DNA of 64,000 nucleotides from Candidatus Marinacidobacterales bacterium (GTDB taxonomy: Bacteria; Acidobacteriota; Vicinamibacteria; Marinacidobacterales; SMYC01). Shown here piece after piece: positions 1 through 46,873 of the stretch. Numbering within the stretch: the stretch's first letter is position 1; every line of letters starts with the position of its first letter. Where the stretch lies: assembly GCA_965224085.1 (NCBI GenBank), contig CBDCYI010000004.1, positions 1,056,001 to 1,120,000 on the forward strand. Direction: 5' to 3'. The notes beneath the pieces were generated by a model. That model saw only the letters and a program-made list of their open reading frames with translations. It was not told where the DNA came from and searched no databases. Both the position numbers and the translations under genes were made by a program.

Positions 1-96
1 CCCGCGAAAACGCGACCATTCGGATGCGAGAAGCGTCGAGGGAAGTACGAAAACGACAAAGACGAAACGAACGAGGCTGTGGCAGCCGAGCGCCAT
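1..96 (-). CDS. 5' end of a secreted PQQ/BamB-like beta-propeller protein (runs off the window edge)
   Basis: AAGGAGG RBS, then ATG at 96: MALGCHSLVRFVFVVFVLPSTLLASEWSRFRG. This is a signal peptide plus the W-x-x-F-R-G start typical of these propellers. Not in the ORF track. Confidence 0.7.
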   Translation of the reverse strand, partial: MALGCHSLVRFVFVVFVLPSTLLASEWSRFRG

Positions 97-127: not shown

Positions 128-185
128 CCTACCCCAGAAGGGCCTACCCCAGAAGGGCCTACCCCAGAAGGGCCTACTCCAGAAG
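128..185. repeat. 15-bp tandem repeat CCTACCCCAGAAGGG x3 plus a variant partial copy overlapping the DUF3179 stop codon
   Basis: Units at 128, 143 and 158, and CCTACTCCAGAAG at 173. Confidence 0.95.
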
Positions 186-1121
186 CGTCGTGTCCGGGTT
201 GTTCAAGCTGAAGTTGTACCAAAACGTGTCGAAGCCGGTGAGCGCTTCGACTTTACCGAAACTGCTCGCCTCTGGATCGAAAACAGCGCCCGTCGCTTTT
301 TCCGTCCACGTTCCGTCGCGCTCCTCGAATCCTGCTTCGGAGACGAAAGCATGGGTCGACTGAAACATCGAGCTCCCGCGCTTGCGGAAAAGAAACACGG
401 AGTGGCCGGCTTCGAGTGTTACGGTCTTTCCGTTCTCGAGATCCTTCTGCCGAACGGCATAGGCGACATTGTCCAAGTGGAACGCGAAAATGGGCGCTTT
501 CGTCGCGAGACGATCGTCCTTAGCAACTTGTCCTCGATAGCCTTCGGGGTCGTGGAAATATTGTTGGTAACCGTTGTCAGCGTGCTCTTCACCGTCGACA
601 GAGAGCACGAGTGTGTCGGGGTGCTTCGCGCGCCAATGACGCCACGAAACCCTCTCGCCGACAGGAAGCTCGATGAGCTTGTTCCCGGCCAATTCACCGG
701 CTACGGCCGCGCCTTCCATGATCGACCAGTAGGTATCGGTCTCTTGGTCTTGCATGATAGGCGAGCTGTTCTTGAGCCCGCCAGACGCTTCGAAGTTCAC
801 GGTCTTCCCTGCGTAATCACGGCTGTACACGACAGCCGCATTACCAAGTGGTCACCACACAGCAGCGAAGTTGGTCTCGCCGATTCTGTCGTTGACGATT
901 TCGTGACTGTTCAGCAAGTTGAGGCTGTAAGCGCGCGCTTGCCCGTCGATGACGACGCCGAGAACCCAGGCTCTGGGCGGCAGCTTCGCTTCGGAAGCGG
1001 GCACGTAGGTCGGCTCGCTGATGGCCGCGATCTGCCCACGTGGGATCACGCGCTTGAAGCCTTCGGGCTCCTGGACTCCGACCATCGCCGCCATCGCGCC
1101 GAAAAATGCGACAGGTATCAT
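174..1121 (-). CDS. DUF3179-family selenoprotein (Sec at TGA 854-852)
   Basis: ORFs 852..1172 and 174..830 are in the same frame and separated only by TGA plus 7 sense codons: HEIVND...AAVW-U-PLGNAAVVYSR. DUF3179 motifs present (ARAY, HEIVND, DQETDTYWS, W..W...HPDT, FWY). Start uncertain (ATG 1121 gives a signal-like N-terminus; GTG 1172 is the alternative). Confidence 0.85.
813..844 (-). promoter_or_regulatory. Putative bacterial SECIS hairpin
   Basis: GTAAT-GCGGCTGT-[CGTGT]-ACAGCCGT-G-ATTAC, beginning 7 nt after the UGA, with G in loop position 2. Confidence 0.7.
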
Positions 1122-1287
1122 GTACGTATTGTCGTGAGTCTCGCTCTCTTGCAGGTGTGAACTTGATAACACTTTCGACGAGTTCGAAGCACCCGGCCAT
1201 TTCTTTGACGGCGCTCACCCGGCAAAAGATAATGGGGCCTGCACTTCGGACGAATTCAGGCATCGGTTCACGAAAGCATAAGAAGAC

Positions 1288-3486
1288 ATGTTCAGAAAAA
1301 CTTTTTTCACGATATTCGTGATGTTCACGGGAGGCACGGGGGCGGGATCTTTCGCCGGCTCAGCCAGTGAAGATTGGACGGATTGGCGAGGCCCGGGCCG
1401 AGACGGCCATTCCTCGGAGACCGGCCTTCCCACGAGCTGGTCTCGCGATGGCGACAACCTCGCCTGGCGGGCTCCTTATGGCGGCCGCTCGACGCCCATC
1501 ATTCTCGGCGACCACCTCTATCTGCAAAACGCTGCTGGAGAAGGCGCGAGCCGGCAGGAGCGCATCATGTGCTTCGACGTCGAGACGGGCGAGCTCTTGT
1601 GGGAGCATCGGATCAACATCTACTTGAGCGACGTACCGCCTCACCGCGTAGGCTGGGCCTCCCCGGTCGCGGACGCGACGACGGGCAACCTCTATGTCTA
1701 TACCGTCGGTGGCTCCGTTTACGGGTTCACCGCCGAAGGCGCCATTTTGTGGAAGCGCTCGCTAACGGAAGATTTCGGCCTCATCACGACCCATGGCGGC
1801 CGCACCGCCTCACCAATCATCGATGGCAACCTTCTCATCGTGAGCGGTCTGAGCTCCGGTTGGGGCGAGCAAGCGCGCGGCGGCCAGCGTTTCTTCGCTT
1901 TCGACAAAGCCACGGGGGAAACGCAATGGGTCAGCTCTCCCGGTGGCCGCCCTTATGACACGACCTACGCGCCGCCTGTCATCGCCGACGTCGACGGCGT
2001 GCGACTTCTCATCACGGGCGGCGGCGATGGAGCGATGCACGCGATTGAGCCTCAGACGGGCGAGTCGGTGTGGCGCTTCGAATATTCCAAGCGTGGCATC
2101 AACACCGGCGCTGTCATCAAGGACAACATCGCTATCGTGAGCCAGGGTGAGGAGAACCTTCGCACGAGCCAAATGGGTCTCGTGGCCGCCATCGATGCCA
2201 CCACGCGCGGCACGATCGACGTCGACAGCGCGAAATGGTCCGTGGGCGGCTTTCTCGGGGGCTATTCTTCACCCGTCCTCGACGGCGACCACTTCTACCA
2301 GATCGACAACAGCGCCAACTTAAAGGCGTTCGACGTGGGGAGTGGCGCCGAGGAATGGACCTTGAACCTCGGCACCATCCAGCGAGCGTCCCCGGTTCTC
2401 GCTGACGGCAAGCTCTATGTCGGCACTGTCAACGGCACTTTCTACATTTTGGAGCTTTCGGCCGACGGTGCGTCGATCCTCGACCGAGACGAGCTGACGG
2501 CCGGTGACGAGTTCGAAGAGATTTACGCCTCGGTCGCGATCGCGGATGGCCGCGTCTATCTGGCCTCGGCGCAAGCGCTCTACGCGATCGGCTCGGCGCG
2601 CAAGGAATCGGCGTCCAAGCCGCGTTCCACCGCTCCGAGTGGTTCGCCCGGCGCGCCGGCCTCGGTTCAAGTCGCACCCACGGACGTAACCCTCGAGCCG
2701 GGTGGCACCGTCGAGCTCGAAGCGCGTCTGTTCGACGCGGAAGGACGTTTCGTGCGGGTCGTGCGGATCGGCGAAGCAACGTGGTCGCTCGAAGGTGTGG
2801 ATGGTGCGGTCGATGGCGGGCGCTTCATAGCGGCTGCGGGCAGGGCGCCCCAAGGTGGGAAGATCCACGCGAGTGTAGGCGAGCTATCGGGCTCGGCGCG
2901 CGCGCGCGTGATTCCGCCTCTTCCATGGAGCGAGAATTTTGACGCGCTCGAGAGTGTCCCGCGGCCGTGGATCAACGCGACCGGAAAGTTCGAAATTCGC
3001 GAGGTCAGCGGCGAAAAGGTGCTCGTGAAGAAGGCCGACAATCCCTTTCTACGCCGCGCGCGTGTGTATATCGGGCCTTCGGACTGGTCCGATTACACCG
3101 TGCAAGTGGATGTGTTGGCGACTCGTCAGCGCCGTCAAATGGGACATGCCGGCGTCATCGCGCAGCGTTATCTGTTGATGCTACTCGGAAGTCACCAGCG
3201 ACTCGAGCTGCAGTCGTGGCAGCCCGAGACCGAGCGCACCGCGAAAGTCTCGTTCCCGTGGGAGCCGAACACGTGGTACCGCATGAAGCTCGAAGTCGCG
3301 ACGCTCGACGACGGCTCCGTGCGCGCCCGGGGCAAAGTGTGGCCACGCGGTGAGGCCGAGCCTTCCGAGTGGCATGTCGAGCGGCGCGACGAGAGTCCCA
3401 ACCGTCAAGGGAGTCCCGGCATCTTCGCCGACGCGACACCGACCGAAGTGTTTATCGACAATCTCGAAGTACGAGCCAACGAATGA
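1288..3486 (+). CDS. Secreted PQQ/BamB-like beta-propeller protein with Ig-like and C-terminal beta-sandwich domains
   Basis: Signal peptide, DWTDWRGP start, repeated SP..DG.LY and TGE..W blades. Confidence 0.85.
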   Translation: MFRKTFFTIFVMFTGGTGAGSFAGSASEDWTDWRGPGRDGHSSETGLPTSWSRDGDNLAWRAPYGGRSTPIILGDHLYLQNAAGEGASRQERIMCFDVETGELLWEHRINIYLSDVPPHRVGWASPVADATTGNLYVYTVGGSVYGFTAEGAILWKRSLTEDFGLITTHGGRTASPIIDGNLLIVSGLSSGWGEQARGGQRFFAFDKATGETQWVSSPGGRPYDTTYAPPVIADVDGVRLLITGGGDGAMHAIEPQTGESVWRFEYSKRGINTGAVIKDNIAIVSQGEENLRTSQMGLVAAIDATTRGTIDVDSAKWSVGGFLGGYSSPVLDGDHFYQIDNSANLKAFDVGSGAEEWTLNLGTIQRASPVLADGKLYVGTVNGTFYILELSADGASILDRDELTAGDEFEEIYASVAIADGRVYLASAQALYAIGSARKESASKPRSTAPSGSPGAPASVQVAPTDVTLEPGGTVELEARLFDAEGRFVRVVRIGEATWSLEGVDGAVDGGRFIAAAGRAPQGGKIHASVGELSGSARARVIPPLPWSENFDALESVPRPWINATGKFEIREVSGEKVLVKKADNPFLRRARVYIGPSDWSDYTVQVDVLATRQRRQMGHAGVIAQRYLLMLLGSHQRLELQSWQPETERTAKVSFPWEPNTWYRMKLEVATLDDGSVRARGKVWPRGEAEPSEWHVERRDESPNRQGSPGIFADATPTEVFIDNLEVRANE

Positions 3487-4928
3487 AAGGCAAGACGAGG
3501 AAAAAGCTCGTTTGGGCCACCGCTCTCTCCGTTCTCGCGGCCATGGTCGCACTCAACGTCCACGCCGACGATTCCAAAGACGGTGATTGGACCATGTGGG
3601 GCGGCACCGCCGACCGCAACATGGTGTCCTCGATGACCGGCCTTCCCCTCGAGTGGGATGTCAATGCCGGCACCAACGTGAAATGGATCGCCGCGCTCGG
3701 CTCACAGACCTATGGGAACCCTGTTGTGGCGAACGGCAAAGTGTTTGTCGGAACGAACAATGAGGCGCTTTACGACAAAGAGATGCCGGGCGACAAAGGC
3801 GTTCTCGTCGCGATCAACGAGGCCGACGGTAAATTCCTTTGGCAAATGGTCAGCGACAAGCACCCTGCGGGCCGCGTCAACGATTGGCCGTTCCAAGGCG
3901 TTTGCTCCTCGCCGCTCGTCGATGGCGACGTGCTCTACTACGTCACCAATCGAGGTGAAGTGCTCGCGCTCGACACCGAAGGCTTTGTCGACGGCGAGAA
4001 CGACGGACCGTATCAAGATGAGCAATATAAAAGCCCGCATGACGGGGACATCATCTGGAAGTTCGACATGATGGAAGAGCTCGGCGCCTTCCCACACAAC
4101 ATGTCGAACTCCTCACCCGTGATGTATGGCGATTTGATTTTCGTGAACACTTCGAATGGACACGACGAAAGCCATGTCAACATCCCGTCTCCTATGAGCC
4201 CCGACCTGGTAGCACTCAACAAGAACACGGGCGAGCTCGTGTGGGAGAACAGCCCCGTGGGCGAGGCCATTCTTCACGGGCAATGGTCCTCCGCCGCTGT
4301 CGGTGACCTCGGTGGCGTCGCTCAAGTCGTGATGGGCGAAGGCGATGGCTGGGTACGCGGCTACGTAGCCGAGACCGGTGAAAAGTTGTGGGAGTTCGAC
4401 AGCAACCCGCCCGGGTCTACTTGGCCGAAGACGCGCAACAATATCATTAGTACACCAGTGCTCTACGATGACAAGGTCTATATCGCAAACGGTCAGGACC
4501 CGGAGCACGGCGAAGGGCTGGGCCACTTCTACGCTATCGACGCGACCAAGCGCGGCGACATCACCCAAAGCGGAAGCGTCTGGCACTACGACAAGATCCG
4601 CCGCTCGATCTCGACGCCGGCGATTCATGAGGGCATCATCTACATGCCGGATTTCAGCGGTTTCTTCCATGCGCTGAACGTCGAGACCGGAGAACCGTAC
4701 TGGGTGCACGACACTTTCGCGGCAGTCTGGTCGTCGCCCATGGTCGTCGACGGCAAGATCTATCTCGGCGACGAAGATGGCGATGTCGTCGTGCTCGCCC
4801 CAGGTAAAGAAGAAAAAGTTCTCGTCGAGATGAACCTCGGGAGCTCCGTCTACGGGACAGCGGTTCCCGCGCACGGCGTTTTATACATCGCGAGCCGGAA
4901 TCAGCTGTTCGCGCTCGCCAACGAATAG
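3483..4928 (+). CDS. Secreted PQQ/BamB-like beta-propeller protein
   Basis: ATGA overlap at 3483, signal peptide, DWTMWGG..DRNMVS, LGSQTYGNP, propeller repeats. Confidence 0.85.
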   Translation: MKGKTRKKLVWATALSVLAAMVALNVHADDSKDGDWTMWGGTADRNMVSSMTGLPLEWDVNAGTNVKWIAALGSQTYGNPVVANGKVFVGTNNEALYDKEMPGDKGVLVAINEADGKFLWQMVSDKHPAGRVNDWPFQGVCSSPLVDGDVLYYVTNRGEVLALDTEGFVDGENDGPYQDEQYKSPHDGDIIWKFDMMEELGAFPHNMSNSSPVMYGDLIFVNTSNGHDESHVNIPSPMSPDLVALNKNTGELVWENSPVGEAILHGQWSSAAVGDLGGVAQVVMGEGDGWVRGYVAETGEKLWEFDSNPPGSTWPKTRNNIISTPVLYDDKVYIANGQDPEHGEGLGHFYAIDATKRGDITQSGSVWHYDKIRRSISTPAIHEGIIYMPDFSGFFHALNVETGEPYWVHDTFAAVWSSPMVVDGKIYLGDEDGDVVVLAPGKEEKVLVEMNLGSSVYGTAVPAHGVLYIASRNQLFALANE

Positions 4929-4931
4929 AGC

Positions 4932-6041
4932 GTGGAATCTTTCGAGTACCGGCCCGAGCCGCGGGTAGTGTTCGGCCGCGGCGCTCTTGACCGCCTCGGC
5001 GAGCTCGCGAATGAGCTCGGCTTCGAGCGCACGGTGTTGACGGCCGATCCCGGCCTACGCGCGACCCCACACGTCGATCGCGCCCTCGGCTTGCTCGATC
5101 GCGCCGGTGTCGAAGTCTTCGTCTTCAGCGATTTCGGCGAGAACCCCGATACCGACATGGTCGAGCGCGGACACGTGTTCGCCGCCTCGAAGGACATCGA
5201 CTCGTTCATCGGCCTAGGAGGCGGAAGCTCGATGGACTGTGCCAAGGGCGTGAACTTGCTTCTCACCAATGGCGGGGTCATCCGTGACTATGTCGGCTTC
5301 GCAAAGAACCGAGAGCCGCTTCTGCCTATGATCGGCGTACCGACGACGTCGGGGACCGGAAGCGAGGCGCAATCCTACGCGCTCATCTCGGATGCGAAGA
5401 CTCATGTCAAGATGGCGTGTGATCTCAGAGAACGCTTTCACGTAGCTATCCTGGACCCCGAGCTCACTGTAACCCAGCCGGCGGCCGTCACCGCAACCAC
5501 CGGCTACGATGCCCTTGCCCATGCGGTCGAGACCGCGGTAACGACGAAGAGAAACGCTTTGTCCGATCTCTACTCCCGTGAAGCTTTTCGATTGTTGAAC
5601 GAAAACTACGCTCGCGTCCTCGAAGAGCCCGACGACCTCGAAGCGCGCAGCGCGATGCAGCTCGGCGCTTTCTACGCGGGCGTCGCGATCGAGAACTCGA
5701 TGCTCGGCGCGACCCATGCTTGCGCCAACCCTCTGACCCAACGCTACGGAACCGCGCACGGTCGCGCCATCGCGATGTGCCTGCCGAGCGTGGTGCGCTT
5801 CAACGCGGATGAGGTGGCGCAGGATTACGCGGCACTCCACCAAAGTGGCGAGTCGCTCGCGAGCCGTCTCGAGGAGCTTGCCGAGCTCGGAGGCCTTCCG
5901 CGCCGCCTCCGCGATGAGGGAGTGCCGGAAGAGGATCTTCCGGGCCTCGCCCGTGCGGCAACCAAGCAGTGGACCGGAAACTTCAACCCGCGGCCCTTCG
6001 ACGAAACGGCCGCCCTGGAGATTTACCGATGCGCCTACTGA
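4932..6041 (+). CDS. Iron-containing alcohol dehydrogenase
   Basis: GGGSSMD, PTTSGTGSE, DALAHAVE, LGATHACANP and HG metal-ligand motifs. Confidence 0.93.
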   Translation: MESFEYRPEPRVVFGRGALDRLGELANELGFERTVLTADPGLRATPHVDRALGLLDRAGVEVFVFSDFGENPDTDMVERGHVFAASKDIDSFIGLGGGSSMDCAKGVNLLLTNGGVIRDYVGFAKNREPLLPMIGVPTTSGTGSEAQSYALISDAKTHVKMACDLRERFHVAILDPELTVTQPAAVTATTGYDALAHAVETAVTTKRNALSDLYSREAFRLLNENYARVLEEPDDLEARSAMQLGAFYAGVAIENSMLGATHACANPLTQRYGTAHGRAIAMCLPSVVRFNADEVAQDYAALHQSGESLASRLEELAELGGLPRRLRDEGVPEEDLPGLARAATKQWTGNFNPRPFDETAALEIYRCAY

Positions 6042-7144
6042 TAATCCTCGCATTCCTGGCGGACGCGTCGCAAGAGACCGTTGCCCCGAAAGACACGTGG
6101 AATCAGTTTCGCGGAAGCCCGATGCGCACGGGACGCTCGGCCGCCGAGATCCCCGACGAGCTGAAGCTTCTCTGGAGCTTCGAGGCCGGCTTTTCCATTG
6201 ACTCCTCCGCCGCCATCGTCGACGACGTCGTCTATATGACCGCGCTTCCGGGGCTCGTCGCCGCGCTCGCCCTCGACGACGGCTCGGTCCGCTGGAAGCG
6301 CGATTTCGGTGAAGAGGAAGACCGGTTCGGGGAATCCTCGCCGATGGTGGTCGAGGGCACCGTCTACGTTGGCGACTTGCTCGGCGTCGTGCACGCTTTC
6401 GACGCCGCGAGCGGCGAGACCCGGTGGACATTCGAGACCGACGCGGAAATCAAAGCTTCTCCCGTCGTCATCGGCGACCACTTGCTCGTCTCGTCCTACG
6501 ACGAGCACCTATACGCGCTCGACCGCGAGACGGGCGAGCTTCAGTGGACGTTTGAAAGCCTCGGGCCTCTTCACAGCACGCCCGGATATGACGGCGAGCT
6601 CGTTTACGTGACGGGATGCGATGCCTTGCTACGCGGCATCGATCTCGAAGACGGCACCGAGAAGCTACAGATGGACTCGGGCGCTTATACAGCCTCCTCT
6701 CCGGCTCTAGTCGACGGCATCGCTTATTACGGAACGTTCAACAACGACGTGCTTGCCGTCGATCTGAAAAACAAAAAATATCTCTGGCGCTATGAGCACC
6801 CGACCCGCCACTTCCCTTTCTATTCCTCAGCCGCGGTGGCAAATGGCATCGTCGTCATTGGCGGCCGCGACAAGATCGTGCACGCGATCGATCAAGAAAC
6901 GGGCGCCTCGCTCTGGACCTACCGTACGGGCGCACGTGTCGAGTCCTCCCCTGTCATCGCGGGCAACCGCGCCTATGTCGGCTCCGGCGACGGCCGCTTC
7001 TACGTTTTCGAGCTCACGACCGGCGAGAAAGTGTGGCAGTTCGACGCCGGCGCTCCGTTCGTCGCCTCACCCGCGCTCGCCGATGGACGGGTCGTCATCG
7101 GCTCCCAGGACGGCATTCTCTACGCCTTCGGGGCGCAGAACTGA
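6029..7144 (+). CDS. Secreted BamB/PQQ-like beta-propeller protein
   Basis: ATG 6029 overlaps the ADH end. WNQFRG start and eight SSP...VYVG-type blades. Confidence 0.85.
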   Translation: MRLLIILAFLADASQETVAPKDTWNQFRGSPMRTGRSAAEIPDELKLLWSFEAGFSIDSSAAIVDDVVYMTALPGLVAALALDDGSVRWKRDFGEEEDRFGESSPMVVEGTVYVGDLLGVVHAFDAASGETRWTFETDAEIKASPVVIGDHLLVSSYDEHLYALDRETGELQWTFESLGPLHSTPGYDGELVYVTGCDALLRGIDLEDGTEKLQMDSGAYTASSPALVDGIAYYGTFNNDVLAVDLKNKKYLWRYEHPTRHFPFYSSAAVANGIVVIGGRDKIVHAIDQETGASLWTYRTGARVESSPVIAGNRAYVGSGDGRFYVFELTTGEKVWQFDAGAPFVASPALADGRVVIGSQDGILYAFGAQN

Positions 7145-10150: not shown

Positions 10151-10854
10151 TGTCCCGCCTCCTGCTCGTCGAACGCACCGATGAACGCGCGGTAGACGTC
10201 GTGGTAGGGATCTCCTTCGAGGGCCCGGAGATCGCGTTCGACGGTTCGTCGGTCTCCCCTGGCCAGCGATCCCGTGAGGGCGTCACGGCCGGAAACGGCG
10301 ATGTTGAGCCTCGTCCTCTCCAGGTAGGGCTCGAGCACCTCGCGCGGCAGACCCAGTCGATGCTCGAAATCGTCGAAGGCCTTGGCCCACAGCATGGTGG
10401 TGAAGTTACCCGCGAGAACGCAGAGCGCGTGGTAGAGCGGTTTGAGCTCGGGGTCGATCGACCACGAAGGGTTGCGAAGGGCGGGAAAGACGTCGTGAAA
10501 GCCGAGCCCGCCCTCCTCGACAACAAAGGGCGCGGTCCGGTAGTTCTCGAGGCTGTACAGTTCGGGACCAAAGGTCATCAGCGGATGGAGGCCGTGGGCG
10601 CCCTCGCGCGTCAGGCTTCCCGAAAAGTGCACCGTCGGCCGGTTTCGAAGATCCGGGTGGTCGGCAAGGAACGACGCCAGAGCATCGTCGCTGATCGCCA
10701 AAAGCAGAATATCGGCGACCGCCAAGGCCTCATCGGGCGCCACCGCCTCGCCACGATGCCAGCTGAGAAATGGTTGGGCTTCGAGCTTTAGGTAGCGGGC
10801 CATGTGGGTGGCCAGGCGTCCCCGGCCGATCAGGCCATAGGTGGGCTTTTCCAT
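10147..10854 (-). CDS. panG: Rossmann-like/DUF2520 protein, probable PanG-type ketopantoate reductase
   Basis: IGRGRLA, HFSG, HPLMTF, YHALCV..GNF, LTG.L.RGD. Coupled to panB. Confidence 0.75.
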   Translation of the reverse strand: MEKPTYGLIGRGRLATHMARYLKLEAQPFLSWHRGEAVAPDEALAVADILLLAISDDALASFLADHPDLRNRPTVHFSGSLTREGAHGLHPLMTFGPELYSLENYRTAPFVVEEGGLGFHDVFPALRNPSWSIDPELKPLYHALCVLAGNFTTMLWAKAFDDFEHRLGLPREVLEPYLERTRLNIAVSGRDALTGSLARGDRRTVERDLRALEGDPYHDVYRAFIGAFDEQEAGQ

Positions 10855-22263: not shown

Positions 22264-24681
22264 ATGCTGACGCTCTGGCTTTCGGATTTTCTCCACTCGG
22301 TGCGGACGCTCCGTCGCGAGCCTTTGAGTTCGTTGGCCATCGTTTTGACGCTCGGGCTCGGCCTGGGTGTGAACGCGGCCGTGTTCGGCTTCGTCGAGGC
22401 TGTACTCCTTAGACCTGTTCCCGCGCAGGAGCCGGATCGGCTCGTCGTCCTGTGGGAGAGCAATCCTTCCCGCCGCGGCGATCTCATCGAAGTCTCTCTC
22501 CCGAACTTTTTCGATTGGCGGCAGGACGCACGCGAGCTCGAAGAGATGGCTGCGATGGGAACCCACGACTGGAGCTACGTTCTGCTCGGCGAAGGTGAGC
22601 CCGCAACGGTGCCCTACCGTGCGGTGTCCGCGTCGTTTTTCGATACCGTCCGGGTACCGCCCTTGCTCGGCCGTACGTTCTCACCAGAGGTCGATGTGCC
22701 GGGAGCGCCCCGCGTCATCGTGATCAGCTACGGAATGTGGCAGTCCCGTCTAGGTGGCGACGCAACGGTCATCGGCCGACGATTGCTCTTCGAAGACTTC
22801 ACCGAGCCCGAGTATTTTACGATCGTTGGCGTCATGCCACGATCGTTCCAATTCCCGCTAGGCGCTGAAGCGTGGGTGCCCGCCGGACGGCAACTTTCGG
22901 CCATCGCCGATGCGAACGGTTTCGACGCGCGTACGCGGCGCGGACTAGGTGTTTTCGTCGCGGTGGGACGCCTCGCTCCCGAAAGCTCGTTGGAAGCGGC
23001 TCGAAGCGAGATGAGCGCCGTCGTTGGACGCCTCGCACGCGAACATTTCGCCCAGATCCGTGACGTGGTCATGACCCCGCTCAACGAGTACATCTACGGG
23101 AGCGCGACGGCGTCGTTGACGCTGCTATCCGTCGCCGTGGGGCTCGTGCTCGTCGTGGCGACCGCCAACGTCGCGAGCCTCCTTCTCGCACGCGTTCTCT
23201 CAGGAGGTCGTGCGCTCGCCATCCGGCGCGCGCTCGGAGCATCTCGGGCCGCGCTCGCCAAGCTCGTCATTCTCGACAGCTTCGTCTTGTCCTCTCTCGG
23301 TGCCGCGCTCGGGGTGTGGCTGGCTTACCTTTCGCGTGGAGCTCTCGTTGCGCTGGCGCCCGTCGGGCTGCCTGGTGTTGAAAACGTCGAGCTCGGGGGC
23401 ACCACCATCGCCTTTACGTTCGGCTTGGCCCTCGTGACGACGGCTCTCGTGAGCATAGCACCCGTGCTCAGTCTGTCCGAAGTGCAGCTGCGCGCGCGCT
23501 TATCGTCTGCCCGCACGAGTGGCTTCCTCGTTGCGAGCGAGGTCGCCGCGGCCGCATCGCTTCTAGTTGCGGCCGGATTCATCGTCCAGAGTTTTTGGAA
23601 CTTGAAGAACACCGACTACGGCTTCCGTCCCGCAGGTGTCGTCTCGTTTCTCTTGAGTCCGTCGCGTTACCGCTACGCGGAGGACGAGCAGCAGCGCGCC
23701 TTTTATCGATCGATGCTCGATCAGCTTCGCGGCGTTCCGGGCGCGTTGCATGTCGGCGCGGTACTCGTCCTTCCTTTCAAGCTCGGCACGATCGGCCAAG
23801 ACAGCCGAATTCGAATCGAAGGCCAATCCGACGCCGAGCAGCAAAACAATCCCACCATGAACTACGAAGTCGCTACGCCGGGCTATTTCCGCGCGATGGG
23901 CATTCGTCTCTTGGAGGGTCGAACCTTCCATGATGACGAAAGCTTGGCTGTTGCGATCGTGAGCCGGAGCCTCGCGGATAGGATGTGGCCGAGCGCTTCG
24001 CCTCTCGGCGAACGCATCCAGCTCTCCAATTCCGATGCATGGCTGACAGTTATCGGTGTAGTCGAAGACGTTCGCTATCGCGAGCTTCAAAGAGCACGTC
24101 TAGACGTTTACCCGCACTACCTTCAAACGCCGTTTGTTCCAGGCGGCCTGAACTTCGCCATCCGCACGGAGCGGGACCCCATGGCCCTTTTGACCGACAT
24201 TGCCGCCGCGGTTCATTCTGTAGACGAAGCACAGCCACTCGACAAATTCCACAGGATGGAGTCGGTCATGGCGAGGGAGCTTGCGCCGTGGCGTTTCAAC
24301 GCGTGGATGGTCGGTCTGTTCGCTGCTCTCGCCACCGCTCTCGCGGCGATGGGTATTTTTGCCCTTTTGGCGCGGAGCGTTGTCGAGCGTTCCCGGGAGA
24401 TCGCCGTGCGCATGGCGCTCGGCGCCACGCGCCCGGACGTTATCTGGAGCGTTGTCGCGCGGGCCGCGCGATGGACCTCCGCAGGGCTTGCTCTCGGTTT
24501 CGCCGCGGCCGCGATCGGGTCGCGCCTCGTTACCAACCTCCTATTCGAAGTCGACGCGACGGACCCTTGGTTCTTCGTTTTCGTCTTCGCGTGCATCGCG
24601 GCGGTCGCACTCGTGGCGGCGGTCGTCCCGGCATGGCGTGCTGCGCGCCTCGACGTGATCGAGCTTCTGCGCGCCGATTGA
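22264..24681 (+). CDS. ADOP-type duplicated MacB/FtsX permease
   Basis: LTLGLGLGVNAAVF, PLLGRTF, IVGVMP, REIAVRMALGA, PAWRAARLD. 805 aa. Confidence 0.9.
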   Translation: MLTLWLSDFLHSVRTLRREPLSSLAIVLTLGLGLGVNAAVFGFVEAVLLRPVPAQEPDRLVVLWESNPSRRGDLIEVSLPNFFDWRQDARELEEMAAMGTHDWSYVLLGEGEPATVPYRAVSASFFDTVRVPPLLGRTFSPEVDVPGAPRVIVISYGMWQSRLGGDATVIGRRLLFEDFTEPEYFTIVGVMPRSFQFPLGAEAWVPAGRQLSAIADANGFDARTRRGLGVFVAVGRLAPESSLEAARSEMSAVVGRLAREHFAQIRDVVMTPLNEYIYGSATASLTLLSVAVGLVLVVATANVASLLLARVLSGGRALAIRRALGASRAALAKLVILDSFVLSSLGAALGVWLAYLSRGALVALAPVGLPGVENVELGGTTIAFTFGLALVTTALVSIAPVLSLSEVQLRARLSSARTSGFLVASEVAAAASLLVAAGFIVQSFWNLKNTDYGFRPAGVVSFLLSPSRYRYAEDEQQRAFYRSMLDQLRGVPGALHVGAVLVLPFKLGTIGQDSRIRIEGQSDAEQQNNPTMNYEVATPGYFRAMGIRLLEGRTFHDDESLAVAIVSRSLADRMWPSASPLGERIQLSNSDAWLTVIGVVEDVRYRELQRARLDVYPHYLQTPFVPGGLNFAIRTERDPMALLTDIAAAVHSVDEAQPLDKFHRMESVMARELAPWRFNAWMVGLFAALATALAAMGIFALLARSVVERSREIAVRMALGATRPDVIWSVVARAARWTSAGLALGFAAAAIGSRLVTNLLFEVDATDPWFFVFVFACIAAVALVAAVVPAWRAARLDVIELLRAD

Positions 24682-24724
24682 CGGTCCTTCGACGAGCTCT
24701 TACGATGCTGTAACGGGTGATGTA

Positions 24725-27177
24725 ATGTCGGATTTCCGCGCTGCCTATCGTTCGCTTCGTGCCACGCCTATTGTCACGCTTGCCGTCATCCTCTCACTCG
24801 GTCTAGGCATCGGCGCCAATACGGCCATCTTCTCGCTCGTCGACAGCCTCGTACTGAGAGCTTTGCCGGTTCGAGCGCCCGAGCGCCTCGTCCTCGTCAA
24901 CTACAGTGAGGAGTCGAAGAAAAACTACTGGGCAACCTATCCGGCGTGGGAAGCGATCCGTGACAGGAAGCTCTTCGAAGGTACCCTTGCTTGGTCCGCC
25001 GAGCGCATCGAGGCGATGCACGGTGGTCGAACAGAGTTTATCGATGGCCTCTGGGTGAGTCGCGGGTTCTTCGATGTGCTCGGCGTTACGCCGATGCTCG
25101 GGGGGTGTTTCACGATAAAGACGATCTCGTTCTCGATCCAACGGACAGCGCTGTCGCGGTCATCAGCCACGGGTTCTGGCAGCGACGCTTCGGCGGGGAC
25201 CCGGCAGTAGTTGGGCGATCCATCTCGGTTGAGCGAGTTCCCTTCACCATCATCGGGGTCACGGATCCTAGCTTCTTCGGCACGGACGTCGGTCGCCGCT
25301 TCGAAATCGCGCTTCCCTTGCCGACCATGACGCTCGTCCCGAGCCGCGAACGGAGCCTAGAAAACCCTCCGGGGCTGCGCGTACGCGTCATGGCCAGACT
25401 CGCGGACGGGCAGACCCTCGAGCGTGCGACCCTCGCAATTCAGCAGGCGCAGCCACAGATCCGCGAGGCATCTTTGCCCAGCACTTGGCGAGCACGCTCC
25501 CGTGAAGCCTATATGCGCGATCCGCTAACGGTGATCCCGGCGGCGACGGGCACCTCTTCTCTGCGCAATCGTTACGCAAGCCCGCTCTTCGTGCTCATGG
25601 TCGTGATCGGACTTGTTCTGCTCATCGCCTGTGGCAACGTGGCCAACCTGCTCTTGGCGCGCGCCGCCGGGCGCCGACGCGAGCTCGGAATTCGTGCGGC
25701 ACTGGGCGCATCGCGTCCGCAGCTCGTGCGGCAATTGTTTACAGAGAGCTTGCTCCTAGCGGCTGCCGCCTCTGTGGCGGCGGTGCTGTTTGGTCATTGG
25801 GCAAGTCGCCTTTTGGTGGCGCAAATGTCTACCATCCTTGAAACCGTCTCCCTGGTGCTGCCCATCGACGGGCGCATGCTCGCCGTCACTGCCATGACCG
25901 CTGTGGCGACAGCCGTGGTGTTCGGTGTTGTGCCAGCGTTTCGAGCTACGAGTGCGGATCCGAGCAGGGGGCTGTGGGAGCACGGTTTCGCCGAGCCGAA
26001 ACGTGTCGGGCCGGGCGGGTTGCTGGTCGTGGCCCAGGTTGCTTTGTCGCTCATGCTCATCACCGGGGCTGGGCTATTTGTGCGCACTTTTTCGGAATTT
26101 GCGCATCTCGACCTTGGTTTCGAGCCCCACCGTGTTCTCATGGTCGACGTGGACTTCTCTCGCAACAGGCCCGAGGCGTCGAAAGCGCTGGCGATGTACG
26201 AAAGGCTGTGCGGGGCGGCTCGAACGGCGCCCGGCGTAGCCCACGCCGCGTGCTCTCCGGCAGTACCCATAGGCTTTCGTGCGCTGACCACGGTAATGGA
26301 CGCGCCCGAAGACACCGCTATCCCCGAGCAGGAGCGCGTCGTCCACAAGAATCTGATCACGCCGGAGTGGTTCCAGGCATTTGGCACACGACTACTCGCC
26401 GGTCGCGACTTCAGCTCAATCGACAGAGTGGGCGCACCCCGAGTCGCGATTGTAAACGAGGCTTTCGCAGAGCGATTTCTGAAAACGGCGAACGCCGTGG
26501 GCCGGATCGTGCGGGAAGATCGCCGGGCGAAGGGAAAACTGACTCTAGAGATCGTAGGGGTCGTCGAGAATGCCGTATACCGCTCTGTACGAGAGCCACC
26601 GCCCGCCACCATTTATCTCCCGCTCGCACAAGAAGGCGATGAAAGTCCCTTTCCTTGGTTGAACGTCGTTATACGTCCGTCATCGGGCCCACCGGCCAGC
26701 GTTGTGGCGGGCGTCGTGGGAGCTCTGGCCGCAGTCGACGGGAATCTCAAGCTGACCGTTCGTCCGATGGAAGACCAAGTGAACGCCACCTTCAATCAGG
26801 AGCGCGTGCTAGCCATGGTAGCTGGCGTTTTTGGCGGTCTGGCGCTACTGCTGGCGGCGCTCGGATTGTACGGCGTGATGGCCTACGCGGTTAGTTGTCG
26901 TCGCAGAGAAATCGGTATTCGCATGGCACTCGGGGCAGACTCCCTAGTTCTTGGAAACGTCGCGGGGATGGTGGGTCTCGGCATCGCAGCCGGCGCAGTT
27001 TTGAGCCTATGGGCCACTCAGTTCGTTCAGTCGTTACTGTTCGGACTCCCGGCAAGGGACCCGTTCTCGTTCGCCGGCGCCGCGGCTGTGCTCGTCGTCT
27101 CGGCCGCTGCCGCGAGCTGGCTCCCCGCACGACGGGCTACTCGTGTGGAACCGAGCACCGTTCTCAAGGACGCGTAG
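24725..27177 (+). pseudogene. ADOP-type permease with a frameshift in a G6 run at about 25100
   Basis: N-terminal ORF 24725..25210 (LGIGANTAIFS) continues in the frame of 24991..27177. Short C-terminal deletion. Could be a sequencing error. Confidence 0.8.
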
Positions 27178-27179
27178 CC

Positions 27180-27292
27180 TACCCCTGGGTTTTCGTTTTC
27201 GTCTTCGCCTGCATCGCAGCCTGGCATTCGTCGCTTCTCTCGCTCCCGCATGCCGCCCGCCTCGATCCTATCGAGGTGCTCCCCTCTCATTG
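27180..27292 (+). repeat. Degenerate copy of the 3' end of the 22264-24681 permease
   Basis: TTCGTTTTCGTCTTCGC.TGCATCGC...GCCCGCCTCGA..ATCGAG...ATTGA matches about 24563-24681. Confidence 0.8.
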
Positions 27293-27299
27293 AGCACCT

Positions 27300-27533
27300 G
27301 CGGGCGGAGCCATCGCCGAAGCGATCGACCTGACTGTCTTCGAGCGCAAGAGCGCCATCGCCTCGGGAGGACAGGTGGCGGTGGCCTACCGCGCCGAAGG
27401 CACGTTCAAGAAGAACGGGAACAGCTCTATCGACGAGGGCATGCATCTGTGGACGTTCGGCGCGGACGGAAAGAACGTCGAATATGTGGGCTACGATGAC
27501 ACGGCCGCTGTCCTGAAAGCTTGGACGGGCTGA
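27300..27533 (+). pseudogene. SnoaL/NTF2-like C-terminal fragment
   Basis: IASGGQVAV...GTFKKNG...HLWTF...GK.VEY..YDDTAA, with a frameshift. Confidence 0.55.
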
Positions 27534-28038
27534 GCGCAGCGAGCACTAGCTAGAGCCTGTTGCAAAACGTAACCGCTTTCACCGTTGGTTTCAATCCGCG
27601 TCCAATCGGGCAGCTGACAGATCTGTGATTTGCCGGCGCCAAACGCGCCTGGATCGATCCGCAAGAATTTTCCCAACTATTTTGTATTTGGTCGTTTTTT
27701 TCTTGACTTGTAGCCTAAGGGATGATATTTATTAGGCGTTATAGGGACCGTTACCAGGCAGTCCGCCCTCTTCTACGTCAACTTCTCCAAACAGGCGTCG
27801 CTCATCAAGGATGATCTACTCGAACCCGTCGACACGCTCCTCGAGGACCCCGAGCTGATAGAACTGACGAGAGAATCGCTCGCTGGTCGTTTCCCGCTCT
27901 CACCGCGTACCGGCCGGGTGAGTATCGCGCCTGACCGCTTGCTCCGCAGCTGTGTACTCAAGCACATCAAAGGATGGTCCTTCCGAGTCCTCGAGCGGGA
28001 GATCCGTTCTAGCCTCGTGTATCGGCGCTTCACTAGAA

Positions 28039-28156
28039 CGCTTCGACGACGATTCGATTCCCAACTACTCCACATTCAGTCGCAACTTTTCCCTACTCGC
28101 TTCGACGACGATTCGATTCCCAACTACTCCACATTCAGTCGCAACTTTTCCCTACT
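28039..28156. repeat. Perfect 59-bp tandem duplication inside the transposase
   Basis: CGCTTCGACGACGATTCG...TTTTCCCTACT at 28039 and 28098. Confidence 0.97.
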
Positions 28157-29211
28157 CGGTGATGCGTTCGTAGAGAAAATCCATGCCCGTGTGGTCGCTC
28201 AGGCTCGAGACGAAAAGGTGGCTACGGGACGCAAGTTACGCACGGATACGACGGTAGTGGAGAGCAACATCCATTACCCCACAGATAGCTCACTGCTTGC
28301 CGATGGCATCCGGGTGCTCACCCGTAGTCTGAAGTGTATTGCAAAGGCTTGTGCTCAAGGTGCGCTCAAGGTGGTGGACCACAGCCGATCAACGAAAAAC
28401 AGGCAGCTTGAGATCGACCGCGCCAGCAAGTCGTTCACCGAATCGAGCCAAGTCAAGTTCAAGCAAAGTTATCGCAAGCTCATGGGCACGGCGCGCAGCG
28501 TGGTCCGGCAAGCCGACGAGGTTATTCAGTCGCTCAAGAGCGGAAAGCTTCCGGTCGTGGGTTCGCTGGTGAGCATCATAAGCAATCAGAGCCAACTCGA
28601 ACATTATCTGCCACTGTGCAAAAAGGTGTTAGCTCAGACAAAGGCCCGTGTTTTAGGGGGCCATCGTCACCATCCGGACAAGATCGTCAGCCTGTTCGAG
28701 GAGCATACGGCCGTGATCCGAAAAGGCAAAACATGGAAGCCGACCGAGTTTGGACGACTCGTGCGAATTGATGAGGTGGAGAACGGCATTGTTAGCCACT
28801 ACGAAGTTGCCGCAGGCAATCCGGCGGACCAAACTCAGTGGATGCCCGCGCTGGAGCAACACAAAAAACAGTTCGCTCGTGCGCCGGAGATGGCGACCGC
28901 TGACCGCGGATTCTTTTCGGCAGACAATGAACGCAAGGCCATAGATCTCGGTGTAAAGAAAGTGGTGTTGCCGGCTCGAGGACGACCCTCGAAAAAACGA
29001 GCCAAGGTTCAAAAAAAGCGCTGGTTCCGTCGAGCCCTCAAGTGGCGCGGGGGCGTCGAGTCCCGCATCAGCACCCTCAAGCACCGCTTCGCTATGCTTC
29101 GCGCCACCTACAAGGGCGACCGAGGATTCAAGCGTTACGTCGGGTGGTGCGTTATCAGCCAAAACCTCATATCGATCGCTCGAGTCAAGCGGCGAAGAAA
29201 GGACAGCGAAA

Positions 29212-29557
29212 ATGCCGAACCCTTCATTCCGATCCACGTAAACGTCGGGACCAGCTCCTACAACAGATTCAACAATATGCGCGAAGGGCGATCTTCGGCA
29301 CACCCTCCGAAACCTATCGTACCTGCGGTACGCCCACTTGTCGGTGCCACGGGCCCGGGCCAAAGCATGGCCCTCACCTCTATATCAATTTTCGTGGCAA
29401 GCACGGCAAGACTACCGGCTACTATGTGCCCCAAGCCGCACACAAGCGTATCCGCGAAGGCGTCGCCGCATGGCAGAGCTTGCAGGATTGTCTGCGAGAA
29501 CTCGCGGACATCAACAAGCAAAATACGCTCGACCGTGCCCGACAGGCGCGTTCCTAA
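29212..29557 (+). pseudogene. DUF6788-like Cys/His-rich IS accessory protein, frameshifted at about 29236
   Basis: GT.SETYRTCG.PTCRCH....KHGPHLY...GKT...YVP. The ATG at 29212 is out of frame with the body. Confidence 0.75.
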
Positions 29558-29641
29558 CAAGCAGTACAACCAACGGCCTCACTCCTGTGCTCAAACAAAT
29601 GAACGCCTTGACGCTAAACGGGCTTTTGCAACAGCCTCTAG

Positions 29642-31331: not shown

Positions 31332-32697
31332 CTAGTCGCCGCGGAGTGCTACCGTCAGGCTCAAACGTGAGGCGCGATGTGCCAGCACGTAAACCGCGGC
31401 GAGCGAGATCACCCTCAGCACCAGTGCGATCGAAGCGAAGGTGAGCGGGTCTCGAGCGCTGATGTCGTAGAGCTGATTCTGTAGCAGGCCGCTCAGGGCG
31501 ACGCCCACGACGAGCCCGAGAGCTAGCCCGACAGCGGTGAGAAGAGCACCTTCGAACAAGATCCCCCACCTCACGTGCCACGGTGTGGCGCCGAGGGCGA
31601 GGCGTATACCAAACTCTTGCACGCGCTGGCCAGCGCTGTAGGAGATGACGCCGTAGAGGCCAATCGCCGCGACCATGACGGCCACGACGGCGAAGATGCC
31701 GAGAAGCGTCAGGGCGAAATGCGTCGGCGCCATCACTGCCGTGAGATAGGCGCTCATCGCGCGCACGCCCTGGACCGGCTGCGCGCGATTGAGCTCGGCG
31801 ACTTCCTTACGGAGCAGGACCCCATGGCCCTTTTGACCGACATTGCCGCCGCGGTTCATTCGGTGGACGAAGCACAGCCGCTCGACAACTTCCGCACGAT
31901 GGAGTCCGTCGTCGCGCGGGAGATCGGACCGTGGCGCTTCAATGCTGCTGAAAAGCTGCCGAGAGTACGGCGAGTTCGCCCCGCGCTTGCGCGAAGTCGG
32001 CGTCTTTTGCGAGGCGCGCTACGACGGTGAAGATGCGCCAGCCGCGGCGAAGCTCGTCGTAGCTACCGCCCCAGGGCACCCACGCCGACAGCTCTTCGGG
32101 AACACCTGCATCCGGAGGCAGGAGCAAGCGGAAACCCTCGGGCATCACCCCGACGACCGTGTGCGGCACGTCGTCCATATCCACGGTCTTGCCGACGATG
32201 TCGCGATCGCCGCCGTAGCGACGCTGCCACAAACCGTGGCTCAGCACGATGACGGTAGGTCCGTTCGGAACGTCTTCGTCGGCGGCGACGAAACGTCCAA
32301 GCGCCGGGCTCACACCGAGGGTCCGCAAGAAGCCTTGCGAAATGAAGCCCATGTCGATCTCTTCAGGATCGGAAGCGTCGTCGGTCAGCGCTGCCGGGCG
32401 GTACCAGATACCGCCGACAGACCTGAAGGCGGTCGTATCGTCGCGATAAGCGACAAGCTCCGGCCCGGAGCTCGCGGGACGAGCGCTATCTTGGCGCGGC
32501 AGCTCGGTGTGAATAACACCGAGTCGGTCAGGCTCTGGATAGGGGAGCGGCTTCAACAACACGCCGTCGATCACCGAAAAGATCGCCACGTTGGCGCCTA
32601 TGCCGAGCGCCAGGGTGGCTACGACGACGAGGGCGAAGCCTGGACGCCGTTTCCAGGAACGAAGGGCGATGCGAAGATCCTGCGCCAGTGTCTCCAT
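31332..32697 (-). pseudogene. ADOP-type permease with its centre deleted (N-part about 31945-32697, C-part 31332 to about 31808)
   Basis: AGGAGA RBS, METLAQDLR..., TLALGIGANVAIFS. C-part GLYGVISY...EFGIRLALGA...ALRGD*. Confidence 0.85.
31809..31945 (+). repeat. Oppositely oriented insert homologous to 24166-24302
   Basis: ACGGAGC.GGACCCCATGGCCCTTTTGACCGACATTGCCGCCGCGGTTCATTC is almost identical; the remainder is more diverged. Confidence 0.9.
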
Positions 32698-32775
32698 GAC
32701 GGTCTCCTGTGAGCGTGCTATCCTGAAAGGGATCCCCCAACAGTCGAATCTACCCAAGCTCTCTCAGGAGGCCCT

Positions 32776-43956: not shown

Positions 43957-43959
43957 GCT

Positions 43960-44024
43960 CTATCCTACGTGATAAACTCTCTCGCAGCTGCAACCGGACG
44001 TGACACGCCCCTAGCGAGGCCGGT
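43960..44024 (+). repeat. Collapsed paralogous copy of the fdh upstream sequence joined to the Sec-codon region
   Basis: 43960-43985 matches 44951-44976, and 43986-44024 matches 45206-45244. Confidence 0.88.
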
Positions 44025-44870: not shown

Positions 44871-44986
44871 CGGCGCCCACGATCGCGCCGTCCTGGGTCT
44901 CACCAAGAGCGCGCCACGCCTAACGCGAACGCACGGCGAAACAGCGTGCCCTATCCTACGTGATAAACTCTCCCGCGAGGCAAGTT

Positions 44987-46864
44987 ATGGGTAAGAGTTA
45001 CAAACGACTGACTCATCCAATGGTTCGCGACAACGGGTCTCTCCGTCGTGCGAGCTGGGATGAGGCGCTCGAGCGCGCCGCCGCGGGCTTCAAAGACCGC
45101 CGCGGGACGTCCTTCGGGCTTTTTAGCTGCTCCAAGTCGACCAACGAGATGAACTTCATGGCCGAGAAGTTCGCGCGTGTCGTCATGGGCAGTAACAATA
45201 TCGATAGCTGCAACCGCACGTGACACGCTCCTAGCGTCGCCGGTCTGGCGAAAGTGTTCGGAGCGGGCGGGGGTACGAGCTCGTACCGTGAGCTCGAAGA
45301 AACGGATGTCATCATCTTGTGGGGCTCGAACGCCCGCGACGCGCACCCTATCTTTTTTCATCACGTTTTGAAAGGCGTACATAAAGGCGCCAAACTCTAC
45401 ACTATCGATCCGCGCCGGACCAGCTCTGCGCAGTGGGCCGATCTCTGGTTGGGTCTCGATGTCGGCACGGATATCGCCCTCGCGAACGCGGTCGGCCGCG
45501 AGATCATCAAATCCGGTCTCACGCATCGAACTTTCATCGAGAACGCGACGACCGGTTTCGAAGCCTACGAGGCGTTGGTCGAGTCCTATACGCTCGAATA
45601 TGCCGAAGACGTCACGTCCCTTCCGAGGGAAAGCATCCGCGAGCTCGCGCATAGCTACGCGAAAGCGGACCGCGCGCAGCTCTGCTGGACGCTCGGCATC
45701 ACCGAGCATCACAACGCCACCGACAACGTGTGCGCGCTCATCAACCTCGCGCTTCTCACGGGCCATGTGGGCCGGTGGGGCTCCGGGGTCGTGCCTATCC
45801 GCGGCCAGAACAACGTACAGGGTGGAGGCGACATGGGCTCGCTCCCGAACAAGTTCCCCGGCTTCCAAGATGTCGAGAGCCCGGACTCCCAGGCGAAGTT
45901 CCAAAAAGCGTGGGGCGCGCGTCTCCCCGACAAGAACGGTCTGCACCTTACGCTCATGTTCGAGGCCATGGCGCGCGGAGACCTGACGTCGCTCTACGTG
46001 ATTGGCGAGAACCCAGCGCAGTCGGAAGCGGACGTAGGCCATGCGATAAAAGTCCTGGAAGGCCTCGAGCACTTCGTCGTGCAGGACCTCTTTCTCACCA
46101 AGACTGCCGAGCTTGCCGATGTGGTGTTCCCGGCGGCCGCTGCCTGGGCGGAGTCCAAGGGCACGGTGACGAGCAGCGAGCGACGGGTCCAACGGGTGCG
46201 CAAGGCGCTCGACGCGCCGGGCGAAGCGAAAGACGATATCGAGATCATCTGCCGGCTCGCGCAAGCGATGGGCCATGATTGGTCCGTGCCGACGGCCGAA
46301 GAGGCATGGGATGAGCTTCGAAGCCTCTCGCCGTTGCACGCGGGCATGAGCTATGCGCGCCTCGAAGAGCTCGGGGGGCTGCAATGGCCGTGCCCGGACG
46401 AGAGCCATCCCGGTAGCCCGTTCCTTCATGGCCGACTTTGGGAGCGTCCCGCCGGTGGACGTCTCGCGCCTTTTTCGATCGTCGAGCAAGTCCCGCCGGT
46501 CGACAAGCTGACCGACGAGTTCCCGCTTCGTCTCACCACGGGCCGGCGGCTCGACTCTTACAACACGGGTGTCCAGACCGGAAGCTTCGACTCCCCTATC
46601 CGTAATCGCGAGACGCTCGATCTCGCGCCCGCGGACGGGGAGCGCTACGGCGTTCACGAAGGGCAGAACGTTAAGATCACGTCGCGTCGCGGCTCGATCG
46701 AAGCACCGGTACGCTTCGACACGAACTTGAGGCCGGGGCTCGCGTTCCTCACGCTTCATTTCCCCGACGAGGTCGACGTCAACCAGCTCACGATCGAGGC
46801 GTGGGATCCCAAGTCGGGCACTTCGGAGTTCAAAGCCACCGCGATTCGCATCGACGCCACTTAG
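44987..46864 (+). CDS. Selenocysteine formate dehydrogenase, Mo/W-bisPGD catalytic subunit lacking the N-terminal Fe-S region (Sec at 45221-45223)
   Basis: ORFs 44960..45223 and 45254..46864 are in frame: NNIDSCNRT-U-HAPSVAGL. RGQNNVQG, GENP and EFKATA motifs. Confidence 0.94.
45237..45251 (+). promoter_or_regulatory. SECIS hairpin of fdh
   Basis: TCGCC-GGTCT-GGCGA, 13 nt after the UGA. The GGTCT apex resembles the E. coli fdhF SECIS. Confidence 0.8.
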
Positions 46865-46873
46865 GAACCCTTC

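Follow-up and report, generated by a model that had tools for sequence, protein, structure and literature searches.

A hidden gene in the window, as we call the whole stretch of 64,000 nucleotides analysed here, almost certainly encodes a selenoprotein of the DUF3179 family: comparison with related genes indicates that its in-frame TGA, at 854-852, is decoded as selenocysteine (Sec). The frame runs on the minus strand from an ATG (1121-1119) to a TAG (176-174) and comprises 315 codons. Its translation has one internal stop, at residue 90 within AAVW*PLGNAAVVY, and the claim that a single TGA joins two in-frame open reading frames is thus borne out. The read-through product matches Pfam DUF3179 (PF11376) from end to end (residues 46-328 of a longer read-through form, profile positions 2-292 of 292, E = 1e-52), with a score of 179.8 bits against a curated cut-off of 27; DUF3179 was the sole Pfam match, and NCBIfam returned none at E ≤ 0.1. 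Cys is absent from the protein, which leaves residue 90 as the sole chalcogen. Reading the same interval on the plus strand was rejected, since it yields an antisense open frame without a family match. TGA terminates 15 of the 34 ordinary genes in the window; the genetic code is therefore table 11, and an alternative code in which TGA specifies Trp or Gly was rejected on the same ground. The 15-bp tandem repeat that runs over the stop codon is a variable-number repeat, since its closest relative (L004) has about 2 copies where the window has 3.9. The features discussed below are collected in the table.

Table. Features of the DUF3179 locus and of the formate dehydrogenase Sec codon, in window coordinates.
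Feature	Position	Strand	Remark
DUF3179 selenoprotein gene, 315 aa with Sec90, no Cys	174..1121	minus	translation, Pfam match
In-frame TGA, predicted Sec90 (W-U-P-L-G-N)	852..854	minus	aligns with first Cys of family C-P-L-C / C-P-L-A
Bacterial SECIS hairpin as folded here, 13 bp, one bulge	813..844	minus	
Conserved SECIS core, 7-bp upper stem and loop CGUGU (831-827)	820..838	minus	invariant G at 830
Short hydrophobic N-terminus, probable but atypical signal peptide	1071..1121	minus	no Lys/Arg; KD 10-mer 2.04
Repeat 1 (about residues 52-175), possibly Rieske-like beta domain without cluster ligands	597..968	minus	H73-E74, Sec90, N94, E111
Repeat 2 (about residues 208-315), degenerate copy without Cys/Sec	177..500	minus	ends G-F-D-T-F-W-Y
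15-bp tandem repeat, 3.9 copies	128..185	.	across stop codon and intergenic stretch
Start of downstream co-directional gene	1..96	minus	BamB-like beta-propeller by L004 orthologue
Divergent genes: three BamB-like beta-propellers and iron alcohol dehydrogenase	1288..7144	plus	
Sec codon of formate dehydrogenase alpha (C-N-R-T-U-H-A-P; DSCNRT*HAPS)	45221..45223	plus	sign of Sec decoding by the genome

Related proteins and genes mostly have Cys or TGA at this position. From a protein database search we examined the best 120 of 638 matches, and 51 of these span the residue-90 column; it holds Cys in 46 and Ser in 5, the Cys lying in C-P-L-A (44), C-P-L-S (1) or C-P-I-A (1) and never in CxxC. Alignment of the read-through product with its homologues, a check proposed with the original prediction, thus puts the TGA at a Cys column. 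Another 68 of the best 120 (of 638) start only past the Sec codon, which is where gene calling would truncate a selenoprotein, and 1 is gapped at the column; database entries of the 3' part are separate open reading frames of 208-246 aa. GTDB genomes were scanned with the pattern G[FL]DTFWYx[WF], which is selective for the gene's own clade, and the best 80 of 120 relatives were kept. The column is spanned in 79 of these loci and reads TGA in 74, TGC in 2, TGG in 1 and Ser in 2, counts that describe the U/C-P-L-A-N clade and not the whole DUF3179 family. Most TGA relatives are 44-66% identical and several phyla contribute them. The clade members belong to Acidobacteriota (Vicinamibacteria, Thermoanaerobaculia, Holophagae), Calditrichota, KSB1, Deferribacterota, Bacteroidota, Planctomycetota, Gemmatimonadota, Krumholzibacteriota and Pseudomonadota (Gammaproteobacteria), and the nearest GTDB relative belongs to Candidatus Marinacidobacterales (95% over the first segment). 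Two loci depart from the pattern through assembly error or decay: L031 has TGG at the Sec column (10214-10216) with its SECIS loop intact, and the closest relative, L004, carries a one-base frameshift downstream of 10268.

The hairpin that follows the TGA is as described in the original prediction when this one sequence is folded: it starts 7 bases 3' of the codon and has a 13-bp stem with one bulge and a CGUGU loop with G in position 2. The 5-nt loop, its distance of 20 nt from the TGA and the predicted energy of -20.9 kcal/mol all fall within the bSECIS model (loop 3-9 nt, G in position 1-2, 16-37 nt from the UGA, upper stem 4-16 bp, ≤ -7.5 kcal/mol; PMC13188914). Compared with shuffled sequences, the energy has a z of -2.4 to -3.2 in 60- and 47-nt pieces and of -1.2 in a 91-nt piece that includes upstream flank. 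A loose SECIS filter passes 252 of the 1534 TGA triplets in the GC-rich window, among which the DUF3179 TGA ranks 28th by energy. By itself, the hairpin is only moderately unusual and is not decisive.

Conservation among the relatives narrows the element to its upper part. In a 75-row alignment, 89% of the cells of the upper 7-bp stem are paired and 17 carry a compensatory double change; 0 of 500 shuffles reach the observed pairing, in a test that relatedness inflates, and slid controls give 20-53%. Pair 21-31, for instance, is C-G in 62 and U-A in 9 of 73 rows, and the swap turns residue 100 into Ser. Of the 7 core pairs, 5-7 are intact in TGA loci (6-7 in 72 of 75) and 3-5 in six non-TGA genes, a small control. 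The codons of V97, V98 and Y99 form the loop and its closing pairs, and their third positions are constrained. This was measured over 74 TGA genes, counting the window gene but not the frameshifted L004. Of 39 conserved four-fold sites, V98 and V97 vary least at the wobble base (0.81 and 0.93 bits), the runner-up reaching 1.44; of 31 two-fold sites, Y99 varies least, at 0.10 against 0.61 for the one that follows. Two loop types occur among the TGA genes, GUC-GUG-UAC and GU(A/G)-GUC-UAC. The lower 5-6 bp are broken in relatives and the whole stem is only 62% paired, so that the entire 13-bp stem was rejected as the conserved element. TGA and hairpin core tend to occur together in relatives, a check that the original prediction had suggested, and the covariation of the core, the prevalence of TGA and the Cys column jointly argue for a hidden DUF3179 selenoprotein with its own SECIS.

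That the genome decodes Sec is indicated by a second gene. The Sec formate dehydrogenase reported earlier in this window is real, its TGA lying in the sequence DSCNRT*HAPS; gene callers would begin fdhA after that TGA, at 45254. It is part of a split NAD-linked enzyme encoded at 44984-49599 (+), in which the Sec-containing catalytic part comes first, a NuoEF-like gene second, and the 2Fe-2S/4Fe-4S N-terminal part last, as a gene of its own. At 43923-44041 (+), sequence from upstream of fdhA is repeated over 63 nt (84%) and runs directly into a 56-nt copy (79%) of the Sec codon and SECIS start, out of frame with a nearby GTG; an fdh duplicate that suffered an internal deletion seems to have left it behind, and it might conceivably act as a SelB-binding decoy. 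We found no sel genes, tRNA genes or Rfam families within the 64 kb. A tRNA-Sec gene lies 0.2-2.2 kb from the DUF3179 gene in 3 of 56 loci scanned, each time just downstream and on the opposite strand (L009:12573-12669, L022:13122-13218, L026:3947-4045). In L056, around 8490 (-), a hidden Sec-peroxiredoxin (P-K-S-S-T-P-G-U) is divergent from the DUF3179 selenoprotein gene. Elsewhere in the window, at 22264-34622, a run of MacB/FtsX-type ABC permease genes is broken by three DDE transposases.

The protein was also said to have lost its resolving Cys. It has none, and neither Cys nor Thr occurs at +3 after Sec (UxxC/T), G93 of its U-P-L-G being private to the window gene; the clade motif is U-P-L-A, found in 73 of 74 TGA loci, with U-P-L-S in 1. 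In the wider family CxxC is commonest (82 domain matches as against 13 CxxA among the 150 best representatives at 50% identity). A quick, midpoint-rooted tree was made from 92 rows (odd-numbered TGA loci, the non-TGA loci minus one partial, and 51 database proteins) with residue 90 masked. In it a 72-row group contains all Sec forms, 22 of 26 CxxA and all Ser forms, apart from 15 CxxC rows (support 100). Since CxxC is absent from the 51 nearest homologues and the U, CxxA and Ser forms make up one clade, these alignments indicate that the second Cys is missing clade-wide, in Cys forms as well, and that neither the window gene nor the switch to Sec accounts for its loss. In this tree the Sec forms have Cys and Ser forms scattered among them (L063, with TGC, falls within Thermoanaerobaculia TGA genes, and L043 has four Ser proteins next to it), which may point to repeated loss of Sec within the clade. 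A second, distant DUF3179 paralogue with C-P-L-T lies 2.4 kb downstream of the Sec form in L002 (at 12632). Members from Calditrichota, KSB1 and Gammaproteobacteria have an extra Cys pair in repeat 2 (near residues 279 and 290; 26 loci, such as L009, L012, L033 and L049), probably a structural disulfide consistent with export; the window protein does not have it.

The two halves of DUF3179 align as a tandem repeat (hhalign probability 99.9), and the predicted structure is nearly all beta and not thioredoxin-like. The models hint weakly at two tandem Rieske-like domains without cluster ligands: the Rieske C-x-H...C-x-x-H ligands are not present, Sec90 being the sole chalcogen. Foldseek searches of the PDB with two predicted models gave nothing at E ≤ 0.001, neither the protein sequence nor a 74-sequence profile retrieved a relative from the PDB, and the 50 matches listed included no thioredoxin, MsrA or MsrB fold. 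Homology to Rieske domains at the sequence level was rejected as not significant, both for single sequences (best E 0.013) and for a narrow 120-sequence profile, which did not outperform a reversed control. N94 is fixed in 100/95% and E111 in 100/88% of Sec/CxxA rows, and CxxC rows vary at the former site and carry Gly at the latter. Among the 19 Ser rows, H73 (63%), E74 (68%), N94, E111, S113 and G114 fall to 53-68%, as against 99-100% in 73 Sec rows (rows not de-duplicated); D78, R101, D125 and W132 stay at 95-100%. This is the pattern that a catalytic pocket round the chalcogen would show. The N-terminus is hydrophobic in 76 of 79 relatives, with K/R before it in 71 and lipobox-like in 17 by a simple heuristic. 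By analogy with the family, the window protein, whose own N-terminus is short and uncharged, is probably exported.

Neighboring genes, called by a crude longest-ORF rule that may miss short or split genes, revealed no conserved operon or partner across 80 loci. The original prediction correctly placed the gene upstream of one beta-propeller gene and divergent from three more, and saw in this a hint of a functional link. This second part found no support: BamB-like propellers are the next gene on the upstream side in 4 of 69 loci (L001, L003, L004, L063) and on the downstream side in 1 of 73 (L004), and 6 of 80 loci, mostly close kin, have one at any distance examined. Three of the six are the closest relatives, and the arrangement is therefore best described as inherited synteny; the divergent propeller and alcohol dehydrogenase genes are common only to close relatives. 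A sigma-70-like promoter match (10/12) at 1205-1233 (+), in the divergent intergenic region, faces the propeller genes. ECF sigma or zf-HC2 anti-sigma genes are nearby in L009, L012, L014, L017, L020, L022, L023, L026 and L032 and also close in L005, L008, L016, L024 and L053. A thioredoxin-like gene is present in only 3 of 80 loci by the redoxin profile, with two more neighbors by Pfam (L018, L065). In L018 (8831-11641) the DUF3179 gene is flanked by two co-directional genes, one of the AhpC/TSA family immediately upstream and one for a SoxA/TsdA-like cytochrome c immediately downstream. Gene fusions are more telling. A membrane anchor, a TlpA-like WCxxC domain and a C-P-L-C DUF3179 domain are joined in 10 of 26 long representatives scanned (10 of the 150 best), all in the CxxC branch and none in the Sec clade. 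The TlpA-like-domain profile found no further fusion among the other DUF3179 proteins examined, and longer forms of the Sec clade (>552 aa) amounted to one distant match, which is weak evidence. Single fusions to fn3, VWA and an ArsP-type permease were also seen.

We consider it probable, if far from assured, that the protein works outside the cytoplasm as a one-selenol oxidoreductase and is recycled by an external thiol system. In the proposed mechanism, UGA 90 would be recoded as Sec by SelB bound to the in-frame SECIS hairpin, a step to which the comparative evidence points. The product would be a two-repeat, all-beta protein, presumably exported, in which Sec90, at the end of a beta strand in repeat 1, would act as the catalytic nucleophile in a site shaped by H73-E74, N94 and E111. 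The selenolate might attack an oxidised substrate, whether a peroxide, sulfoxide, disulfide or persulfide, and a separate thiol donor would then reduce it again; the likeliest is a thioredoxin of TlpA type that CcdA/DsbD keeps supplied. An outside donor is proposed because there is no resolving Cys, and one of TlpA type because of the fusions in the CxxC branch. The prevalence of CxxC in the wider family, these fusions and the relaxed pocket of the Ser forms favor a redox role, and most characterised selenoproteins are thiol-type oxidoreductases (PMC13188914); the non-thioredoxin fold, the restriction of the TlpA fusions to CxxC relatives, the scarcity of thioredoxin-like genes nearby, the lack of a conserved partner gene and the intact Ser forms in several lineages count against it. 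The exported redox selenoprotein originally envisioned is thus retained as redox-related and as probably exported, the latter on family grounds, its own N-terminus having no basic residue.

Other roles for Sec90 can be imagined. Together with His73/Glu74 it might be a soft ligand for a metal or metalloid, the protein then being an exported one that binds, chaperones or detoxifies. Some selenoproteins that are substrate-binding subunits of ABC transporters have been proposed to work in this way, and in CxxC forms both Cys would take part in holding the metal. H73-E74 and C/U90 are indeed conserved together in all Cys and Sec classes, the scaffold may be Rieske-like, H73 would be a cross-strand neighbor of residue 90 if strands 75-80 and 83-90 of the models (DSSP) form a plain hairpin, and there is the one fusion to an ArsP-type permease. 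However, the U/CxxA clade has one ligand fewer, no metal transporter or resistance gene recurs beside the gene, and TlpA fusions outnumber the permease fusion 10 to 1, making this reading unlikely. Smaller still is the likelihood that Sec, Cys or Ser serves as a hydrolytic or group-transfer nucleophile activated by His73, in an exported hydrolase or transferase. Ser at the column in 5 of 51 close homologues (best 120 of 638) and 2 of 79 loci, together with the adjoining His-Glu pair, would fit such chemistry, but Ser forms lose His73/Glu74 rather than keep them, CxxC spacing and thioredoxin fusions favor redox chemistry, and no hydrolase fold appeared among the structure matches. We attach an equally low probability to the protein being a client, that is, a ligand-binding or sensory envelope protein with Sec/Cys as a redox switch and perhaps ECF sigma/anti-sigma or beta-propeller partners. 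An ECF sigma/zf-HC2 cluster accompanies 22 of 80 loci (adjacent in a nine-genome clade, within about 2 kb in a few others) and propellers flank the gene in the window; yet the orientation and distance of the ECF genes vary, propellers are confined to the few loci counted above, and genes for ECF sigmas and for BamB-like propellers abound in these phyla. Finally, that the TGA is a true stop in a pseudogene or split gene, or Trp/Gly under another code, is scarcely tenable: the separate 3' entries in databases, the TGG of L031 and the frameshift of L004 would agree with it, but the TGA occupies the Cys column in 74 of 79 genomes with both sides fully conserved, the SECIS covaries and TGA ends ordinary genes of the window.

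Extending the one-selenol oxidoreductase reading to the family gives a broader picture, which is tentative and, taken as one joint proposal, doubtful. DUF3179 would be an unrecognised family of extracytoplasmic repair or detoxifying reductases that arose from a duplicated Rieske domain by loss of the cluster and gain of a Cys/Sec active site on another hairpin, and that serves as terminal acceptor of a CcdA/DsbD-TlpA chain, in parallel to MsrAB. The U-P-L-A-N clade would be its one-selenol version; Sec would be the ancestral state, Cys and Ser forms would have arisen several times, and the clade would rank among the more common hidden selenoproteins in marine and sediment Acidobacteriota, Calditrichota and KSB1. 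The family is large, its profile matching 11,409 clusters (50% identity) at E ≤ 0.001. Because Sec marks the reactive site exactly and the fusions name a likely electron donor, two proteins and a set of oxidised substrates would suffice to test DUF3179. Gene calls systematically reduce the Sec clade to the 208-246 aa fragment, and selenium use is therefore under-counted in the protein sets of aerobic or host-associated Acidobacteriota and of Calditrichota/KSB1.

Sec forms of DUF3179 are not new, as the original prediction had surmised. A DUF3179 selenoprotein with the motif UxxC/T stands among predicted families in two reviews that credit Zhang and Gladyshev 2007 (PMC9312934; PMC13188914); the accessible text of that paper (PMC1976440) does not use the name DUF3179, and by elimination the family is OS_HP1, whose motif is given as UxxC (PMC2398784). 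GenBank applies the name 'DUF3179 domain-containing (seleno)protein' to Cys members of the present clade. Since the family is already listed, the Sec call itself will not surprise a specialist. BSepDB was built by iterated tblastn with all known families over 64,762 genomes (PMC13326102); it probably holds many of these genes and may already include the U-P-L-A-N clade. The accessible text on deep-Sep makes no mention of DUF3179 (PMC12013277), and one DUF3179 locus is listed as membrane-localised (PMC9230427). Searches of the literature for DUF3179/PF11376 found no function, fold, U-x-x-A motif or localisation for Sec-DUF3179, and the literature and PDB searched contained no measured activity, structure or Se incorporation for any DUF3179. 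The U/C-P-L-A-N clade, mostly Sec-encoded and without a second Cys, was not found in print, and the repeat plus Rieske-like architecture and the TlpA fusions are likewise additions to the literature searched.

The window gene resembles the listed DUF3179 selenoprotein in its Pfam family, in the Sec column, which is the first Cys of C-P-L-C, and in a SECIS directly 3' of the UGA. It differs from the listed UxxC/T proteins in being of the U-P-L-A/G-N type and in belonging to a clade of its own with fixed N94 and E111; and whereas the listed DUF3179 is from a deltaproteobacterial symbiont, this clade is found in Acidobacteriota, Calditrichota, KSB1 and others, the listed representatives being compared by description only. 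In fold, the closest likeness suggested by the models is a weak one, to the Rieske [2Fe-2S] ferredoxin fold (3dqy, 2qpz, 3gce) and cluster-less NirD (3c0d, 4aiv). Pneumococcal Etrx1/2 and MsrAB2 form an extracytoplasmic chain from CcdA/DsbD through a TlpA-type thioredoxin to MsrAB (PMC3914529). The DUF3179 fusions parallel that chain in joining an anchored WCxxC TlpA-like domain to a Cys-dependent terminal domain outside the cytoplasm; unlike it, they end in DUF3179, which neither Pfam nor fold relates to MsrA/MsrB, and they belong to the CxxC branch only. The window protein also does not have the thioredoxin-family profile (Prx, Trx, Grx, GPx) with a UxxC/TxxU motif. In 1-Cys peroxiredoxins, Sec-peroxiredoxins and monothiol Msr, a single reactive chalcogen is recycled by an outside reductant. 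The Sec form of DUF3179, without their thioredoxin fold or PxxxTxxU, is like such 1-Cys/1-Sec peroxidases and reductases in having a single reactive chalcogen.
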